A stretch of DNA of 33,352 bases from Catajapyx aquilonaris (GCA_000934665.2 JYFJ02004281.1:1-33352), one strand, 5' to 3'; positions 3,998 to 33,352 are shown, counted from the stretch's first letter. Notes: generated by a model from the sequence alone, not told the origin. Program-made: numbers and translations.

Positions 3998-4614
3998 CAG
4001 TAAAACTTCTATAAGTCAAATCTCCATGGGACCGGAAAAAAACTTCGAGTTATAGAAGATTCGAGTTAGAGAAGTTTGGCTTTTTTTAAGCACAGGACTT
4101 AATATGGAAGCCTACCTTTATATCCAGCGACAAAAGGGTTTCAAAACCTAAAAATAACTGTCATTATCACACTTACAATGTTCCTCGTTGTTTTGTTGTA
4201 AAAAAAATCTCCGTTATGGACATTTGCCTACTCTTAGATGCAAAGATTCGATTGTCACAATCCGGTCAAACACTTCTTTCGGTACATCTGGTAGACAGAG
4301 ATCAGGAAATCGAGCCTTTCTGTACATGTGGCCTACTCTCGACCCTTCAGCTGGGAAAGGAGAAAATTTTCCGTACTCGTCAACATGAACTTCGACTTAG
4401 GGCTCGACTGAAAATGCATTGATATCCCATCGTAAGGCCCTGCCTGCCCTTCGAGTTATGGAGAACTTCGAGTTATAGAAATTCGAGTTAGGGAAGTTCG
4501 AGTTAGGGAAGTTTATTTCCTATTATTTTACATTGTGACCAACCAAGCTCGTCATTTTCTTCGACTTATAGAGAACGTCGACTTAGGGAAGTTCGACTTA
4601 TAGAAGTTTGGCTG
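3998..4614 (-). mobile_element. pogo/Tigger-like (Tc1/mariner) non-autonomous element
   Basis: TA at 3996-3997 and 4615-4616. TIR cagtaaaacttctataagtc vs cagccaaacttctataagtc. Many ttcgagttatagaa subterminal repeats. Minus-strand remnant SRQMSITEIF resembles the pogo C-terminal KQxxITDFF motif. Confidence 0.85.
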
Positions 4615-5230: not shown

Positions 5231-6125
5231 TAACATTGTGCACTTGGTGTGAGGTCTTGGCTTTGGCTGCTGACCCCCTCCCCTTACCCCAGCAACTACA
5301 ACATGAGTCCACTAAACAGAGGTGAAGTCAATAAAAAAGCAGAACCTGTTGGAGGTTCGCTCGTTGACCAATCCTCCAGTGATGGTGAAGCAAGTGCTAG
5401 AGTTCATCTGCCTCCTCCTTAGAGAAAATGCTTCTGAGTGGAAGTCCATCAGACAGGTCATTCTTCGGGAGAACTTCATCTCGACCATAGTCAATTTCAA
5501 CACAGAAGACATGCAGTTATAATCTAAACCCCAGCTCTAATGGCCCTCCACGGCCCCCTTTACTGTGTTACTGAAATTATGCCCTCTTGGAAAAACAGTC
5601 AAGCAATTTTTAGTGCAGAAATTTTGTGTACTGCTGAGTTCTACATGTCGTAAATGGAGTTGGACAGGGGAGGCGCTGTGTAGAAGGTCCCAGGTTCGAA
5701 CCCTGCCCAGGAGTTCTCTTTCACCTGTGTCAGGAGGGTCTATGACCCGCGCCTTGGAGGCGTCTGGAAACCTAACCTCCAGGGAAACTGCACATGACCC
5801 TTTTTCAGACATTGCACTTGCACCTGTGTCTCCTCCCCAGAAATCCCCATCCTTATCCCATGTCCTTTCATCCTTGCACTGGAGTTGAAGAAAATTACAG
5901 AAAACTGATGGAAAATGGTGGTATTCCATCCCCCTAAGAGGGCCTCTAGCCCTATCACTGCTCAAGGTCTAGAAAAAGGTCGAACGCTCATGGGGACGAA
6001 TTTGAGCAGCCACTGCGCATGACGCCGCAAGGTGCGACTTTCTCTCGGCCGGGCGGCCTTTTCCTACATTTTCAGTTACTTTCCTCTCTAAATAGTGACT
6101 ATTTGGAGTACAGAAATTTTAATCA

Positions 6126-16734: not shown

Positions 16735-17579
16735 TTAAAGATGCCACATTTTTAGAGCTCCTTTTTTTAAGACCTTTTTTTCAAGTCGCTTTGCATAAGC
16801 TCCGAATTTTAAAATACCAACACCACCAAAATACGGTACCTAATAGAAGAAATACCAATACTGGCGCATATAACAAAATAATGCATACCCCTTTGAATGA
16901 TTTGTGAATGTGTTGGAAAAAAATTATATAATTTGGGGTTCATTTGCAGGAGAAAAATGCATATTTAACTGGAGGAGATATTGTTATCAGTCAAACTTAG
17001 GGCATGAGAGAAAGAGGACGTGTAGTTATATTCTGGTTTATTCATTCTTACATGATATCAAGTTGGTAAGTATTTTATACTGTATACTGTAGTATGATAT
17101 AAATGATAAGGAAATTTTTGTTTTTTAAGTACGGGTGACGGCAATGTATGCATGGTACAGTCACAGAAGGGGAAACTGAAACTGGAGGTGAATGGATTTT
17201 TATTTGTGAAGGAGAGAAGCCGTAATTATGTGTGTTGGAGTTCCAATCAAAAAAAGACAGGATTGAAATCTGCATCAACTGCTCAAACTGTTAGTGGATG
17301 GTAAGCATAATTTGCGAGGTACAAATCGAGATCATAGTCATAGTCCAGATCCTACTCGTGGAATGGTAGCTGAGAAGTTGGAGGAAATGAAGGAAAAGGC
17401 GAAGACGAGTAATGATAAATCTTCTCGTGTAGTCCAGAGGACTGGGGTTACTATGTCTACCATTAGTGCTGTGGCAATGCCTGGTAAGGAAGCCATGAGA
17501 AAACAGGTGCAAAGGGCAAGGAGAGAAGAAAAGGTTGTGGAGCCAATGAGTTTTGAAGAAATTAATATTCCTGATCTGA

Positions 17580-26387: not shown

Positions 26388-27429
26388 TAGGTGGACTTCA
26401 CAAGTGCAGAAGTGGACTCTGCCGCTTTCTCTTGGTTTTTATCAATATTTTCTTAGCTGTATTTTGAGGAGACATATTTTTGTGGTGTAGTGAGATGAAG
26501 CATTGTGTTGTATTTTTTCTTTAATTGGTGACTCTTAAAAGTCACACTTCTCTCAGCAAATTTGTGCATTACTTAAGTGCAGGCGGTGGCTTTCCCAAGT
26601 TGTGTTGACAGTAGTTCATTTAAAAAATAAATGCACAAGTTAGTGAAATACTGATATACTGGGACGAGACAGCTGTGCATCATAAGGAAAGTTTTCAGTC
26701 ATGGTTTTTAGGTGGTTTTGTATATCATGGTTTTCTTGACTTTCCAGTTTTGAAAGTTGGATGTTTGATATTATTGCTTCCGACTTTGGGGAGTCATGGC
26801 ACCCATGACTGGAATTTATTACTTTTTACATTACGTTCTGTGAATCACGTGTGCTATCCGCAATAGGAATCTTGACTTGAGTGAAACAAGGAAATTGGTG
26901 CTACGATTTAAACTCTATATATCTGATGATATAAAGTATTAACAAGAATCCAGTTGGCGGGTTAGACGCACGTGAAAAGATGCAATAAAGTGATCTGATA
27001 GCACGTGTATGTGTAGCGTGAGAGAGAGAGAGTTGGCAAGTTCACCGGCAGGGGCATGAGAGAAGTGAGACTCCCGCAAAAGTGGCAGGAGGGTGAAGTC
27101 AGAGGGCGCAGCGGTCGGGCCAATTTTAAAAAGGACAAATTGAATTTTTTAGAGCAACCCTGTTTTTTTAGCCATAAAACAGTATTCCGGTTTAAACTAG
27201 GGAGGGCAACCAAGTAGGGATCAATTATCAAAGCAAGGGCATCAATGTGTAGATAAGCGATGCGGCACTAATGTATGTATAATTGAGACACCAGAGGTAA
27301 AGTAAAAGGACTATATGTAGAAGTCAGGTTTGATGGAATAAACCAACTGAGGCCGAGGTGGAAGCAGTAGTCGAAGCCAGAGCCAAAGTTAAGTGGAGAG
27401 AAGGAGTTGTTCGCCTTTGTTTGATCTCC

Positions 27430-27507
27430 CACCCACCTAAGCGCCTTCGGGCAGCTGGGTACCACCAAACCACCCACACCCACCTAAGCGCCTTCGGGCT
27501 GCTAAGG
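27430..27507 (+). promoter_or_regulatory. Twin bulged C(UUCG)G stem-loops in the LTR
   Basis: 23-bp exact direct repeat cacccacctaagcgccttcgggc (27430-27452 / 27477-27499). Each copy folds as agc-gcc[UUCG]ggc-N-gct with a further lower stem. Confidence 0.65.
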
Positions 27508-27518
27508 CACCCCCTCCC

Positions 27519-27899
27519 ATGCCAAAAGGAGAGGCCAACAAGACCAAGCGGGGTTGCCGGGGCGGCCAACAGCCCCGGGCCAAGAAGCAGCAGCAAGACG
27601 CTGACCAGATCGCCGCCGACGCCGCCCACGCTGCCCAGGAAGCCATCGACCGGGAGTACTCTACCCAGGTGGCACTCCGAGCGGTCATCCGAATAGAGGC
27701 CGCCAAGCGGTGGCACCAAGAACTGGCCCGCCAGGCCGCCGCCCAACCACCCAGCTGCAGACCCCTCCCTCCGCCATCACCTTTCCTCCCCGCCAAGCTC
27801 CGCCTGGTCCTTCCCCCTCCTCTCCCCCGCAGACCTTTGATTGAACTCGGCCCAATCCCTGTCCGCTCCCTCACCGCTACCATCCCTTTGTCTAAATAA
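27519..27899 (+). CDS. LTR-internal ORF, 126 aa: basic N-terminus, Ala/Gln/Glu helical middle, Pro-rich tail; function unknown
   Basis: ATG-initiated, protein-like composition. Only ATG between 27336 and the gag start. Stop overlaps AATAAA 27895-27900. Confidence 0.6.
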   Translation: MPKGEANKTKRGCRGGQQPRAKKQQQDADQIAADAAHAAQEAIDREYSTQVALRAVIRIEAAKRWHQELARQAAAQPPSCRPLPPPSPFLPAKLRLVLPPPLPRRPLIELGPIPVRSLTATIPLSK

Positions 27900-28022
27900 A
27901 CCCTTGCCAGAGCCCCTCCAACCCCACCGCGGGTCCGGGGTCCGAACCTCCCTAACCCTCCCCACCTTTACCCCTTCACCCCCCCCACCACCACCACACA
28001 ACGAAGTCACCCCACGTGACAT

Positions 28023-28040
28023 TGGCGCAGCCGGTAGGAT
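28023..28040 (+). promoter_or_regulatory. Primer-binding site, tRNA-Ser
   Basis: tggcgcagccggtaggat is complementary to the 3' end AUCCUACCGGCUGCG-CCA recalled for insect tRNA-Ser. Confidence 0.85.
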
Positions 28041-28073
28041 CGGCAAGGTCACCCAGCAGCAACACCCAAGAAG

Positions 28074-29279
28074 ATGGAGGAGCTGAGAGAACAAATTCGC
28101 AAATTAGAGGAAGAGAAGGAACGAATGGAGGAAGAACGAAGGCAGATGAAAGAGGAAAAGGGGAAACCAGAGTGCGCCATGACCAACATAAGTTTTGCCA
28201 ACGCCATACCAGTGTACGACGGGACCGGAGCCGCCCAAGGCATCACAGACTTCCTGGCCTCTATTGAAACAGCAGCGGAAATCTCGGGATGGACGGACCC
28301 CCAGAAGACACTAATTATGAAGCTGCGAGTCAGTGGAGAGGCACGGGCTTTTATGAACTCCCTACCCAACGCCGCCTCCCTTCCATGGGCAGAAGCGGCA
28401 GAAGCTCTGAAAACAAGATATGATGAGCCAACCACCACCGCGACCCTCATACAGCAGCTGGCGGAGGTCAAACAGAAGGAGGGCGAAACCACCCGCGCGT
28501 TCGCGGCACGGATACGGCAGCTGGGCTCAAGGATTGTGGAGAACACGAGGTCCAGCCACGACAACAACCTCCTAACAGCGCAAATGACGGCGCAGTTCAC
28601 CAGAGGACTGAGGTCCCCTGATGTCCGCAGGTTTGTGTGTTACGCAAACCCTACCACCTTCGACGAGGCCGTGTCGATAACTGCTCTTCAGGAGGCGAAT
28701 GAAGACTCTACACCAAAGAAATCAGTCCGACTGGTGGAGGCGAAATGCACAGAAGAGAGGTTGGAGGAGATGCTTCAACGGATGATGCACTTCATCGATG
28801 CAAGAGAAGGAAAGGGAGAGCCACCGACACAAGAAGCCACGAGGGGACGGAGCCCCGCCTCGCGAGGCTACCAACAGAACGGAAGACGTGACCTCACCCC
28901 TGGGAGACCCTACAGAGATAACAGCAGGGGGAGGAGCCAGTCCCGAGAAAGAGACCAGTCCAAGGGAAGATACAACCCCAACCACAACCCCCAGAGAGGC
29001 CCCGCCCCCAACTATCCCTACCATCCCATACCTAGCTACCAGTACCAAACCCCTTCGCCAAGCTACACCCATTCCAACTTCCCCAACCAACCCAGACAAC
29101 CCCCACCCACGAAGGACCAAACAGGAGAAGCCCAGGGACAACCCTGCCACCTATGCCTCCGCTACGGACACGACCCCAACAACTGCTGGACCCAATCTTC
29201 GCAGTGCTTCCGTTGTGGAGGATGGGGCCACCTCGCAAGGGCATGTCCGGGAAACGGGGCTCGGCCCTCCCAAAACTGA
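28074..29279 (+). CDS. gag: Gag, 401 aa (N-terminal coiled coil, capsid, two CCHC zinc knuckles)
   Basis: QKEGETTRAFAARI (major-homology-like), QFTRGL, CHLCLRYGHDPNNC and CFRCGGWGHLARAC. Confidence 0.95.
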   Translation: MEELREQIRKLEEEKERMEEERRQMKEEKGKPECAMTNISFANAIPVYDGTGAAQGITDFLASIETAAEISGWTDPQKTLIMKLRVSGEARAFMNSLPNAASLPWAEAAEALKTRYDEPTTTATLIQQLAEVKQKEGETTRAFAARIRQLGSRIVENTRSSHDNNLLTAQMTAQFTRGLRSPDVRRFVCYANPTTFDEAVSITALQEANEDSTPKKSVRLVEAKCTEERLEEMLQRMMHFIDAREGKGEPPTQEATRGRSPASRGYQQNGRRDLTPGRPYRDNSRGRSQSRERDQSKGRYNPNHNPQRGPAPNYPYHPIPSYQYQTPSPSYTHSNFPNQPRQPPPTKDQTGEAQGQPCHLCLRYGHDPNNCWTQSSQCFRCGGWGHLARACPGNGARPSQN

Positions 29280-29292
29280 AGAAGGAGGGCCG
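29249..29292 (+). promoter_or_regulatory. -1 programmed ribosomal frameshift signal
   Basis: Slippery heptamer G_GGA_AAC (29249-29255) in the gag frame, 6-nt spacer, 9-bp stem cggccctcc/ggagggccg. pol is in the -1 frame. Confidence 0.85.
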
Positions 29293-32200
29293 TGACGTCA
29301 GGAGAATAGAGGGTGCCCAGGACGGGAGAGGAGCAACCGCGGCGGTCCGGAAGTTAGAAAAACACGCCATATTCATCAACGCCACTATCCAGAACCAGCA
29401 AGCGATTTTTCAGCTCGATACGGGAGCAATGGCCTCCATCATCAACCCAGAGTGGCTACCCCTTCAAACCAGCCCGGCCGAGGACGAAGAAGCTGCCGAA
29501 TTGGTGGGGGTCACAGGCGATGTTCTACCTGTCCAAGGCGTTTACCACTTTGAACTTAACGTCGGTGGGAGGAAGATCCTGCACCCACTCTGGGTCATAG
29601 AGGAAGGGAGCCAAGCCTACGACGGTATCCTCGGGCAGGATTTTATCGCTGCCCAAGGAATTGATATCCTGACCAGCCAATCGGCGATAAACATGGGAGG
29701 GCTAATCATCCCATATGCTCGCAACCACCGCTACCCCAAAACCGCCCCTATCAAATGGATAGACACACGACCCATTCCCGCCCGATCCGAGATAATCACA
29801 ACCGGACTGACGGACAGGAAGTACTGGAACAAGACCATCCTGCTGGAGCCCGTGGGACAGCCGGTGGGCGGATTCGTGGTGGCCCACGCCCTCACGCAAG
29901 TCTCCGGGGACGGTCGGGTCCCTATCAGGATCGTCAATACCACTGAGGAAGACATCCACATACCGGCAAACGCAACTATAGGAAAAGGAAGCTCGTCATA
30001 CGCACTGTACGACACCTCGAAGAACAACGCGGCCCAGCTGGAGCCTGACTGGACCGAACTCAAGATGGGACCCCTCGAGAGCTACCATCAAGACGACCTG
30101 AGGAACCTACTACAGGAATACAAGAACGTGTTCCAGGCAACGGACGGCCCCTTGGGGCAAACATCGACCGTAAAGCACAGGATTGAGACGGGAGAAGCAC
30201 GCCCCATCGCCTGCAGACCTTACCGAATCCCGGAAAGACAGAAAGAAGAAGTAACCGCCTGCATCGATGACATGCTGCGGCATGGGGTAATTGAACCGAC
30301 GTCATCTGCATGGGCGGCGCCAGTCGTCCTAGTCCAGAAGCCCGACGGCAAACTGAGGTTCTGCGTGGATTACCGGAAATTAAACGCGGTCACAAAACGA
30401 GACATCTACCCTCTACCCACCATCCCGGAAACGCTGGACAAGCTGGGAGGGTCCAGATACTTCAGCTCCTTAGACCTCCACACGGGATTCTGGCAAATCG
30501 ATGTGGACAAACGGGACAGAGAGAAAACGGCCTTCATACTACCTAACGGCAGGTACCAATTCACAAGGATGCCGTTCGGCTTAGTTAACTCACCCAGCAC
30601 CTTTCAAAGATTGATGGACGTCACACTCGCCGGACTTAAAGAAGACATTTGTCTAGTGTACCTAGATGACATCATTATTTACTCGGAGTCCTTCCCGGAA
30701 CACCTGAGACGCTTACGGTCAGTCCTCGACAGACTCAAGAAGGCGGGACTAAGGTTAAAACTGTCCAAATGCCATTTCGCCAAGGAACGAGTCAAATACT
30801 TAGGACACATAGTCTCAAGAGACGGAGTCGAACCCGACCCCGCTAAGATCAGCACCATCCAAACCTACCCGGAGCCACGCACCATCAAACAAGTCCGAGC
30901 CTTTTTAGGCCTCGTCGGGTTCTACAGGCGATTTATCCCCAGATTTGCGGATCTGGCGCAACCATTGACCCGGCTGACGAAGAAACCTGCTTACCCAGGA
31001 CAGAAGCTACAGTGGGGAGAAGAACAGACCAAAGCCTTCACCACCCTGAGAAATTCCCTTACTAAATTCCCAGTCCTACGCTGTCCTGACTTCTCAAAAC
31101 CATTTACGCTTTCAACCGACGCATCCGCCTACGCCGTCGGCGCCACGTTGTCACAAAGATTTGAGGATGGAGAGCATCCCCTGGCATACCAGAGCCGGCA
31201 ACTCAGCAAGGCAGAGAGAAACTACTCGACAACGGAAAGAGAATGCCTAGCTGTCGTGTGGGCGATGAGGTCATTCAGATGCTACCTTTACGGCCGACAC
31301 TTCACCGTCATCACAGACCACGCCCCCTTGAGGTGGCTAATGAACCTGAAGGATCCGTCTTCCCGGTTGGCCCGTTGGTCAGTCGCACTCCAAGACTACG
31401 ACTTCGAAGTGATACACCGACCAGGCAGACTCCACTCCAACGTGGACGCCCTGAGCAGGATCGAGGTCAACACCATCCATGAACTAGAAGAGACCTGGGA
31501 TAAGGCCAGACTTAGGAAGGAGCAGGGGGCAGATCCATACTGCCGCCCCATCCTGGAAGACGTGCGGAACGAGCGAAGACGGGACTTCTACACCGCCAAC
31601 GGGATCTTATACACCCAAAAAGGCAGCAGGGAAGTCGTCGTAGTTCCCAGGACCATGACGGAAAAGATTATGGAACTCCATCATGACCCTCCATTCGCAG
31701 GCCACTTGGGGTACCACAAAACCCTGGCAAAAATCCAACAACGATTCACCTGGCCGGGGATGACAAAGGACATCCGACAATACTGTAAGACCTGCACATC
31801 CTGCCAGAAGAGGAAGCAGCCCAGACCTCGAGGGACGGCCCCCCTCCAACCTTACCCAGAAGTACACCTGCCATTCGAGCGCGTATCGATGGACTTCATG
31901 GGACCACTACCAACCTCAGAGGGCGGGAACAAGCACATCCTGGTGCTAACGGACTACCTGACGAGATATCCGGAAGCGTTCGCCTTACCGGACCAGAAGG
32001 CAGAGACGGTGGCCAGGGTGTTGGTCAACGATGTGTTTACACGGCACGGCATCCCGCGCCAGCTGCTCACGGACCAAGGCCGGAACTTCACATCACGCCT
32101 CATGAAGGAGTTATGCAACCTCCTCGGGGTGAAGAAGATACAGACCACGGCGTATCACCCTGCGGCAAACGGGCTAGTGGAAAGGTACAACCGTACGTTG

Positions 32201-33013
32201 GTAGACAGTCTGAGCCACTACGTCAACAAGGACCAGACCAACTGGGACGAAGGAGTACCACTCGTTCTGATGGCGTACCGTAGTGCGGTACAGGAGTCAA
32301 CGAAGGAGACGCCCTTCTTTCTCATGCACGGACGTGACATGACCCTACCGGCGGATGACACCTTCACAGCGCCGCCGGAGCCATACAACGACAACCCTTC
32401 CTACAGGACCACGTTAGCACGCCGCATGCAGTCGGCGTACGAGGTGGTCAAGGAGCGGTTAAAGGAAGCTTTCCAGAATCAGAAGAAACAGCACGACCGG
32501 AAGAGGGAGGAAAAATGCATCGAGGAAGGTGACCTGGTCTTACTCCACACCCCGAATTGCCCACCCCGCCTCGCCCACAAACTCTTCAACCCTTGGGACG
32601 GGCCCTTCCGAGTACTCCAGCAGACCCATCCCTGCAACTACCTGATCCAACACATGAAGACGGGGAAGAGGCACCACGTCCACGTGGACCGCCTCCGACC
32701 ATTTACACCCCGACACCCCTTCCCTATGATGAACGACACGCCCCAAGCAGAGGCGACGCAACCAGAGTCAGTCACGGAGAGGATTATCGAAACAGAGGCC
32801 CCGATCCTGGAGGATATATGGATCATCCCGCCTGCCGTCACCTCTACCGTAGCGACAAGCCCGGAGCGACGTACCCTGGTGACGGAGAGGAGCTACCAGC
32901 CGGTGACCGATCAGCGGCAGTCTGCCAGCCGGACGACGGGGTACCGCGACCAGGACAGGTCACGACCCACACACAGCTACAACCTCCGCAGCCGTGGAAG
33001 CCCGACCGAGTGA
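29249..33013 (+). CDS. pol: Pol polyprotein (protease, RT, RNase H, integrase), expressed as a Gag-Pol fusion
   Basis: LDTGA and GILGQD; LRFCVDYRKLN, MPFGL, YLDD; TDAS, ECLAV, TDH; HHCC zinc finger, MDFMGP, LTDQG, NGLVERYN; WDGPF. Uninterrupted frame (ORF track 29153-33013). Confidence 0.97.
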   Translation, partial: GKRGSALPKLKKEGRDVRRIEGAQDGRGATAAVRKLEKHAIFINATIQNQQAIFQLDTGAMASIINPEWLPLQTSPAEDEEAAELVGVTGDVLPVQGVYHFELNVGGRKILHPLWVIEEGSQAYDGILGQDFIAAQGIDILTSQSAINMGGLIIPYARNHRYPKTAPIKWIDTRPIPARSEIITTGLTDRKYWNKTILLEPVGQPVGGFVVAHALTQVSGDGRVPIRIVNTTEEDIHIPANATIGKGSSSYALYDTSKNNAAQLEPDWTELKMGPLESYHQDDLRNLLQEYKNVFQATDGPLGQTSTVKHRIETGEARPIACRPYRIPERQKEEVTACIDDMLRHGVIEPTSSAWAAPVVLVQKPDGKLRFCVDYRKLNAVTKRDIYPLPTIPETLDKLGGSRYFSSLDLHTGFWQIDVDKRDREKTAFILPNGRYQFTRMPFGLVNSPSTFQRLMDVTLAGLKEDICLVYLDDIIIYSESFPEHLRRLRSVLDRLKKAGLRLKLSKCHFAKERVKYLGHIVSRDGVEPDPAKISTIQTYPEPRTIKQVRAFLGLVGFYRRFIPRFADLAQPLTRLTKKPAYPGQKLQWGEEQTKAFTTLRNSLTKFPVLRCPDFSKPFTLSTDASAYAVGATLSQRFEDGEHPLAYQSRQLSKAERNYSTTERECLAVVWAMRSFRCYLYGRHFTVITDHAPLRWLMNLKDPSSRLARWSVALQDYDFEVIHRPGRLHSNVDALSRIEVNTIHELEETWDKARLRKEQGADPYCRPILEDVRNERRRDFYTANGILYTQKGSREVVVVPRTMTEKIMELHHDPPFAGHLGYHKTLAKIQQRFTWPGMTKDIRQYCKTCTSCQKRKQPRPRGTAPLQPYPEVHLPFERVSMDFMGPLPTSEGGNKHILVLTDYLTRYPEAFALPDQKAETVARVLVNDVFTRHGIPRQLLTDQGRNFTSRLMKELCNLLGVKKIQTTAYHPAANGLVERYNRTLVDSLSHYVNKDQTNWDEGVPLVLMAYRSAVQESTKETPFFLMHGRDMTLPADDTFTAPPEPYNDNPSYRTTLARRMQSAYEVVKERLKEAFQNQKKQHDRKREEKCIEEGDLVLLHTPNCPPRLAHKLFNPWDGPFRVLQQTHPCNYLIQHMKTGKRHHVHVDRLRPFTPRHPFPMMNDTPQAEATQPESVTERIIETEAPILEDIWIIPPAVTSTVATSPERRTLVTERSYQPVTDQRQSASRTTGYRDQDRSRPTHSYNLRSRGSPTE

Positions 33014-33242: not shown

Positions 33243-33255
33243 AAAGAGGGAAGTA
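33243..33255 (+). promoter_or_regulatory. Polypurine tract
   Basis: aaagagggaagta immediately before the 3' LTR TG. Confidence 0.8.
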
Positions 33256-33352
33256 TGTAGCGTGAGAGAGAGAGAGTTGGCAAGTTCACCGGCAGGGGCA
33301 TGAGAGAAGTGAGACTCCCGCAAAAGTGGCAGGAGGGTGAAGTCAGAGGGCG
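33256..33352 (+). repeat. 3' LTR (partial)
   Basis: 97/97 identical to 27012-27108. Confidence 0.97.

Follow-up and report, generated by a model that had tools for sequence, protein, structure and literature searches.

LTRs are usually treated as non-coding control regions, and the extra genes known from LTR retroelements lie in the interval between pol and the 3' LTR, on spliced RNAs or, in the case of MMTV, in U3. The MMTV gene is sag, whose product is a superantigen, a membrane glycoprotein; MMTV itself is a betaretrovirus of vertebrates. The expression "LTR ORF" in the literature searched refers essentially to sag. Another point of comparison is orf c of the retrovirus WDSV, which is described as a 5'-proximal ORF, for which translation from the genomic RNA is presumed, that ends 7 bp before gag and whose product goes to mitochondria. 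Within the Ty3/gypsy group, the element Cer1 of C. elegans carries CERV, a lineage-restricted accessory protein of 517 amino acids which is needed for export of the genomic RNA and whose spliced mRNA has five exons and overlaps gag; homologs outside the host group are reported to be absent.

Paired hairpins and small upstream ORFs are also familiar from retroviral leaders. The packaging signal of MLV contains twin GACG hairpins and the RSV leader contains uORFs a few codons long; these affect packaging or translation, and both lie downstream of the primer-binding site (PBS). Regulatory pairs such as HIV-1 TAR/Tat and RRE/Rev and lambda boxB/N combine bulged hairpins with a small protein bearing a basic stretch, the loop being a hexaloop in TAR and GNRA-like in boxB. 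In plants, a review places the extra ORFs of LTR retrotransposons (aORFs) between pol and the 3' LTR and gives their function as unknown (PMC7264820), while the LTR and 5' UTR of insect gypsy-type elements are described, in another study, as divergent cis-regulatory, non-coding sequence (PMC12992720). A literature search conducted mostly outside the subscription journals brought to light no Ty3/gypsy element in which a selected ORF precedes the PBS.

The locus considered here lies in a window of 33,352 nucleotides from Catajapyx aquilonaris (GCA_000934665.2, JYFJ02004281.1), the window being the whole stretch of DNA that was analysed. An LTR in this window contains a candidate gene of 126 codons just downstream of two hairpins with C(UUCG)G loops, and we regard it as an LTR-retroelement accessory ORF that occupies an uncommon position. 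Like MMTV sag, it would be a protein-coding ORF within the LTR of a reverse-transcribing element; unlike sag, it is situated in the R/U5 part of an arthropod Ty3/gypsy LTR, about 200 nt past a TATA-like box and ahead of the PBS, and a Pfam search with it returned no Sag family match. It differs from WDSV orf c in ending 174 nt before gag, in having no sequence similarity to it and in lying upstream of the PBS, so that it is duplicated together with the LTR. With CERV it would share the character of a Ty3/gypsy accessory protein without homologs, but it is encoded in the LTR; with the plant aORFs it shares that of an extra ORF in an LTR retrotransposon, but it is found inside the LTR.

Hairpins with the same loop in a pair, and an upstream ORF in the leader, likewise recall MLV and RSV, but here they stand upstream of the PBS, and a UUCG loop cannot make GACG-type kissing contacts. 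The juxtaposition of bulged hairpins and a candidate gene whose small product has a basic stretch resembles TAR/Tat, RRE/Rev and boxB/N, and the size and the basic, helical, Leu/Pro-rich layout of the predicted protein loosely recall Rev. Unlike these systems, with which it has no homology, the locus has UUCG as its loop.

Anatomy of the carrier element and its LTR

The carrier is a Ty3/gypsy LTR retrotransposon, as seen from its direct TG...CA repeats, its gag capsid and CCHC domains, the PR-RT-RNaseH-IN order of its pol, its PBS and its polypurine tract. The gag and pol frames are both open. Its parts are the following:

27012..28021, plus strand: 5' LTR, 1010 bp, TGT...ACA (TGT at 27012, ACA at 28019-28021)
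28023..28042, plus strand: primer-binding site, 20 nt, TGG..., 1 nt past the LTR end
28074..29279, plus strand: gag, 401 aa, with Retrotrans_gag, Ty3 capsid and CCHC knuckle (Pfam); ATG in strong context
29153..33013, plus strand: pol, 1286 aa, PR-RT-RNaseH-IN (Pfam), in the -1 frame relative to gag
33243..33253, plus strand: polypurine tract, ahead of the 3' LTR
33256..33352, plus strand: start of the 3' LTR, 97 nt visible, ending at the window end

The start of the LTR at 27012 is fixed by the recurrence of its first 97 nt (27012-27108) at 33256-33352 with 100% identity, and in other copies, seen as loose ends of contigs, a purine tract is joined straight onto it. At the other end, CA at 28020-28021 directly precedes the PBS; because the window cuts the 3' LTR, this 3' boundary of the 5' LTR is defined by the PBS alone. 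The PBS at 28023 presumably matches the 3' end of tRNA-Ser, and the 33,352 nt of the window contain no tRNA gene. A block at 28013-28050 is the sole one common to contigs of another LTR family, as a primer site would predict, and this other LTR-element family of the genome thus appears, from a contig that matches only the PBS block and is unlike the window on either side of it, to use the same primer site.

Over 29153-29279 gag and pol share 127 nt, pol being in the -1 frame, the common arrangement for frameshifting. The nearest relatives of the RT-IN region show 35-58% identity, and those that are named come mostly from arachnids, together with crayfish and a few other animals. Searches for relatives of gag in viral and metagenome contigs and of pol in genome and viral contigs gave no confirmed match. 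When the LTR was compared by blastn with the rest of the window and with the interior of the element, only matches of at most 21 nt were obtained, and no other LTR copy was found there.

The features of the LTR itself are:

27012..27342, plus strand: U3-like part, purine- and AT-rich, delimited by GC content and motif positions
27430..27456, plus strand: repeat copy 1; hairpin 1 pairs 27435-27460, loop C(UUCG)G at 27445-27450
27477..27503, plus strand: repeat copy 2; hairpin 2 pairs 27483-27507, loop at 27492-27497
27519..27899, plus strand: LTR ORF, 126 codons, with a basic N-terminus, a predicted helix at residues 20-75 and a Pro-rich tail
27895..27900, plus strand: second AATAAA, which includes the stop codon of the ORF; possible poly(A) signal

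GC content is 0.39-0.58 in the U3-like part versus 0.57-0.71 further downstream in the LTR. The only TATA-like box of the LTR, TATATG at 27312-27317, would place the start of transcription near 27343, and the LTR contains no match to the arthropod Inr (TCAKTY). Which part of the LTR would be R depends on the poly(A) signal used. A first AATAAA is found at 27337-27342, in the U3-like part; if this were the 3'-end signal, R would be very short and the hairpins and the ORF would fall in U5, and the genomic RNA would then have them at its 5' end and nowhere else. With the second AATAAA in use, R would span about 570 nt and full-length RNA would need read-through, and each LTR could yield a short capped mRNA made up of the hairpins, the ORF and poly(A).

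The LTR ORF and the duplicated hairpin motif

According to the original prediction, a gypsy LTR contained two bulged stem-loops capped by C(UUCG)G and, 12 nt further on, an ATG opening a 126-aa ORF that begins with a basic peptide and ends inside AATAAA. All of this was recovered: the module lies within the LTR at 27012-28021, upstream of the PBS of an element with gag and pol domains; both stem-loops (27435-27460 and 27483-27507) are found by sequence and by folding; the ATG at 27519 begins 12 nt past the last paired base of hairpin 2; the ORF runs from 27519 to 27899; and its TAA at 27897-27899 sits within the AATAAA at 27895-27900.

The length of the ORF was compared with shuffles of the T-poor half of the LTR, in which an ATG-initiated ORF of at least 126 codons appeared in 93 of 2000 cases, a marginal result, and 152 or more successive codons without a stop in 713 of 2000. 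Its base composition is 3-periodic, to a degree equalled by 24 of 2000 shuffles, and this periodicity is absent elsewhere in the LTR (1557 of 2000 for the U3-like part, 221 for the leader ahead of the ORF and 1019 for the stretch behind it). Pieces of gag and pol of equal size, used as a control, were matched by 1 and 0 of 2000 shuffles, respectively. The GC content of the ORF at codon positions 1, 2 and 3 is 0.72, 0.54 and 0.71, and the dip at position 2 is found in gag and pol as well; its GC3 of 0.71 is near the 0.63 of gag and the 0.68 of pol. Synonymous codon preference scored against gag-pol usage did not separate the frames, the ORF frame reaching 0.131 versus 0.120 for frame +1.

Divergence among LTR copies was examined with Logan DNA contigs of one sample (X1-X3) having at least 80% likeness to the window, a sample which is probably the assembly's own source. 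The listed substitution sites number 40, with 25 of them in the ORF; 44 further substitutions and 2 indels lie outside this list. By codon position, the 25 listed ORF substitutions are distributed 5/3/17 (P=4e-4), and 16 of them are synonymous, versus a mean of 7.4 (P=0.00055) under a null in which each change was moved to a random site with the same base, the substitution type thus being matched. At least four variant contigs contribute to this signal: one of 243 nt accounts for 20 listed changes, 11 of them synonymous, and in three other variant contigs all five changes are synonymous. Four of the other five frames have no excess of synonymous changes among the listed substitutions. In the fifth, an antisense frame whose wobble positions coincide with those of the ORF, 12 of 25 are synonymous (P=0.036) and a stop codon is gained. 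An antisense ORF of 148 aa (27437-27883) was considered as a real gene and rejected on that count, on the stop gained in a variant and on its G/R/W-rich product.

Indels follow a similar pattern. Within the ORF, 9 nt are deleted at 27619, and a pair of -2 and -1 at 27890 and 27896, read by hand, has a net effect of -3, after which the frame still ends on TAA within AATAAA. In a loose end of 30 letters before 27539, aligned by hand, a 12-nt in-frame insertion stands beside three synonymous third-position changes; the 30 visible letters upstream of codon 7 in this variant include no in-frame ATG, which counts against the ORF. None of the eight listed indels in the U3-like part is a multiple of 3. 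A further contrary case is a 1-nt deletion at 27745 in the 243-nt contig, which breaks the ORF frame. Four of the six changes after it are still synonymous in the reference frame, and the deletion is therefore likely to be a late private lesion or a contig error. With its excess of synonymous and third-position changes, its mostly frame-preserving indels and its 3-periodicity, and notwithstanding the single 1-nt deletion, the ORF looks coding, as under purifying selection. We regard it as probable that the frame is, or recently was, protein-coding.

The ORF protein had no Pfam family and no match among 1.84 billion representatives; none of 89 word-sharing candidates scored in a word-indexed search, metagenome and viral contigs gave no confirmed match, and the ESM Atlas, where recognition was low, returned nothing usable. 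Similarity to Tat, Rev or N was likewise absent in Pfam, the representatives, the word-indexed search and the ESM Atlas. The 126 residues include 21 K/R versus 10 D/E, 20 Ala and 18 Pro. The N-terminus is basic, as the original prediction stated, with 8 K/R among the first 25 residues, including one RGG. AlphaFold2, run on the single sequence, models one helix at residues 20-75 (pLDDT 83-93) with disordered ends and a mean pLDDT of 69.5; a confident single-sequence helix means little here because the protein is Ala/Pro-rich and of low complexity, and Ala-rich sequences at large would be likely to give one. A motif scan of the protein gave two instances of PxxPx[RK] and two loose hits of NES type, all in the tail and too unspecific to be of use, and no late-domain motif or clear heptad register. 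If made, the protein would probably function in nucleic-acid binding or as a regulatory or assembly cofactor.

The two hairpins arise from a direct repeat of 27 nt with one mismatch and a period of 47 nt, and since both are copies of one duplication they are not independent evidence. Their predicted energies are -12.2 kcal/mol (hairpin 1) and -11.7 kcal/mol (hairpin 2). CTTCGG at 27445 and 27492 is closed by a 3-bp apical stem in both folds, as in a cUUCGg tetraloop, and below this stem each hairpin has a single-nucleotide bulge (A27453 and T27500). A cUUCGg loop is a closed structural cap and not the usual kind of loop recognised by proteins. Lower in the stem there is a second irregularity, a bulged A in hairpin 1 and an A.A mismatch in hairpin 2.

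The original prediction drew attention to 3' arms that differ yet keep the pairing and the bulge. Such differences are present, with pairing and bulge retained, but they do not amount to covariation. Between the copies the 5' arms do not differ; in the 3' arms, one G/A substitution leaves a pair with U intact, and an additional base changes the register, converting the bulge into the A.A mismatch. A one-sided change and a register shift leave no true covariation between the copies. By energy, the hairpins are not exceptional either. Dinucleotide shuffles folded at least as well in 21 of 200 cases for hairpin 1 (z -1.42) and in 23 of 200 for hairpin 2 (z -1.27), and 13.5% of 36-nt windows in the C-rich half of the LTR reach -11.7 kcal/mol or below, the figure for the host part being 3.0%. 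When the entire putative leader (27343-28100) is folded, both apical stems belong to the MFE structure, with a pair probability of about 0.5. Rfam gave no match at E<=1, and a search of genome contigs for the hairpin pattern gave no confirmed match. As structured RNA, the hairpins are plausible but unremarkable, in stability and in compensatory change alike.

Nor does the second hairpin seem to be present in all related LTRs. Two variant contigs track the window to 27465 and then diverge; in a hand alignment of a loose end of 30 letters past this point (agreement 0.72), the site of hairpin 2 is degenerate and has no CTTCGG, while hairpin 1 is kept. On this alignment, LTR variants do not all retain both hairpins. 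Breaks in variant contigs at 27425, 27465 and 27586 suggest, weakly as these are single contigs, that a block made of hairpin 1 and the first 23 codons is common to otherwise differing LTR variants. Summed contig depth peaks over 27412-27615, a value that is not a copy number.

Proposed translation of the leader and alternative readings

All seven ATGs of the LTR upstream of the ORF lie at or before 27333, and from 27334 to 28080 the only ATGs are those of the ORF (27519) and of gag (28074). Between them, at 27522-28073, no ATG occurs where 2.3 would be expected (P=0.048). The ORF ATG has a weak context (cccAUGc, with C at -3 and C at +4), and the gag ATG a strong one (aagAUGg, with A at -3 and G at +4). 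A weak context followed by a strong one, with no ATG between, is the classical arrangement for leaky scanning, by which we infer that gag may be reached. Read-through from the ORF into gag was rejected as a candidate: the two share a frame, their starts both being multiples of 3, but are separated by in-frame stops at 27897, 28017 and 28035.

Our preferred reading, to which we give a probability of roughly 0.55, is that the LTR encodes a small accessory protein in the leader, that gag is expressed by leaky scanning on a bicistronic genomic RNA, and that the hairpin motif is a duplicated leader element with a putative role. The C-rich downstream two-thirds of the LTR (about 27343-28021), upstream of the PBS, would constitute a long transcribed leader (R/U5) carrying a genuine small gene for a protein with a basic disordered N-terminus, a long helix and a proline-rich tail. 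The AUG of this gene would be the first on the genomic RNA, and some ribosomes would start there; others would scan past it, through 555 AUG-free nt, to the strong AUG of gag. The twin hairpins would be a leader motif of 27 nt, duplicated in tandem and placed shortly before the ORF AUG. The anatomy of the element, its coding-like divergence, the 3-periodicity and the placement of the AUGs are observed; transcription start, translation of the ORF and leaky scanning are here deduced from the arrangement of signals. If a selected ORF in R/U5 is real, every LTR, solo LTRs included, is a potential gene, the genomic RNA is bicistronic, and TE annotation pipelines that mask LTRs overlook such proteins. 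The element family could then serve as a simple animal system for the study of leaky scanning and of leader-encoded accessory proteins.

An unlikely competitor is that nothing is encoded, the frame being open by chance in a C-rich, T-poor, non-coding leader and the hairpins being a duplicated chance palindrome; such a frame could be tolerated because its AUG is weak. The shuffles with stop-free runs of such length (713 of 2000), the open ORFs on the opposite strand, the absence of homologs of the protein from all collections searched, the one frameshifted variant and hairpin z-scores of -1.4 and -1.3 all speak in its favour. Against it stand the synonymous nature of 16 of the 25 listed substitutions (P=0.00055) and the third-position placement of 17 of them, indels that mostly keep the frame in the ORF versus none of eight listed in the U3-like part, and a 3-periodic composition that within the LTR is confined to the ORF. 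Less probable again, and compatible with a real ORF, is that the 27-nt motif acts as DNA, in the form of paired transcription-factor sites (an enhancer or a downstream promoter element) with CACCC-like flanks, the hairpin being incidental. No factor or motif was identified for such sites, which would lie some 90-160 nt past the sole TATA-like box, and the stems retain a pair probability of about 0.5 in the whole-leader fold; on the other side, tandem duplication of a short motif is the usual form of an LTR enhancer, the repeat is exact save for one mismatch while the pairing partners outside it differ, and no Rfam family matches. Cell-type-specific cis-regulatory sequences are carried by the LTR and 5' UTR of insect gypsy-type elements, according to that study (PMC12992720).

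The boldest proposal, put forward in the original prediction, is that the LTR protein would use its basic N-terminus to bind the leader's bulged hairpins, in the manner of Tat/TAR, Rev/RRE or N/boxB, and so govern poly(A) read-through, export or translation. The layout does fit, with hairpins, a gap of 12 nt, an ORF with 8 K/R in its first 25 residues and a stop inside AATAAA; the variant breaks at 27425, 27465 and 27586 weakly suggest, from single contigs, a common block of hairpin 1 and N-terminus; and a Rev-like export factor exists in Ty3/gypsy in the form of Cer1 CERV. The hairpins, however, are not unusually stable and show no covariation, one variant lacks the second in a hand alignment, UUCG loops are poor recognition surfaces, the protein showed no similarity to a known RNA-binding regulator in Pfam, the representatives or the ESM Atlas, and there is no known spliced RNA that would call for a Rev-like factor. 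We consider the proposal very improbable. Equally improbable is its fullest version, in which the LTR would be a self-contained cassette (promoter, twin hairpins, a 126-aa basic, helical, Leu/Pro-rich protein and a stop-fused poly(A) signal) whose protein binds its own hairpins. Were it true, the protein would choose between a short LTR-only mRNA and the full-length RNA, or would export or translate the latter, and Tat/Rev-like autoregulation would have evolved independently in an arthropod Ty3/gypsy element and be expressed from solo LTRs too.

Surroundings of the element

The host flank just upstream of the LTR (26800-27004) is itself repeated. The stretches 26800-26845 and 26959-27004 are matched by contigs of X1-X3 and of X5, a second sample, in which a different 106 letters take the place of the 113 between them; the flank-matching contigs are unlike the window after 27004, and those of X5 cover the host flank only. 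From these matches, the element appears to have inserted into or next to another repeat. Elsewhere in the window, a short array of 15-nt units (TTCGAGTTAGGGAAG-like; family D1) occupies 4459-4609, with four overlapping copies within 150 nt and a fifth copy, a 61% match, at 17107. A direct repeat of 57 nt (family D3; 2683-2739 and 5803-5859), with 88% identity between copies 3.1 kb apart, may mark the ends of another mobile element.
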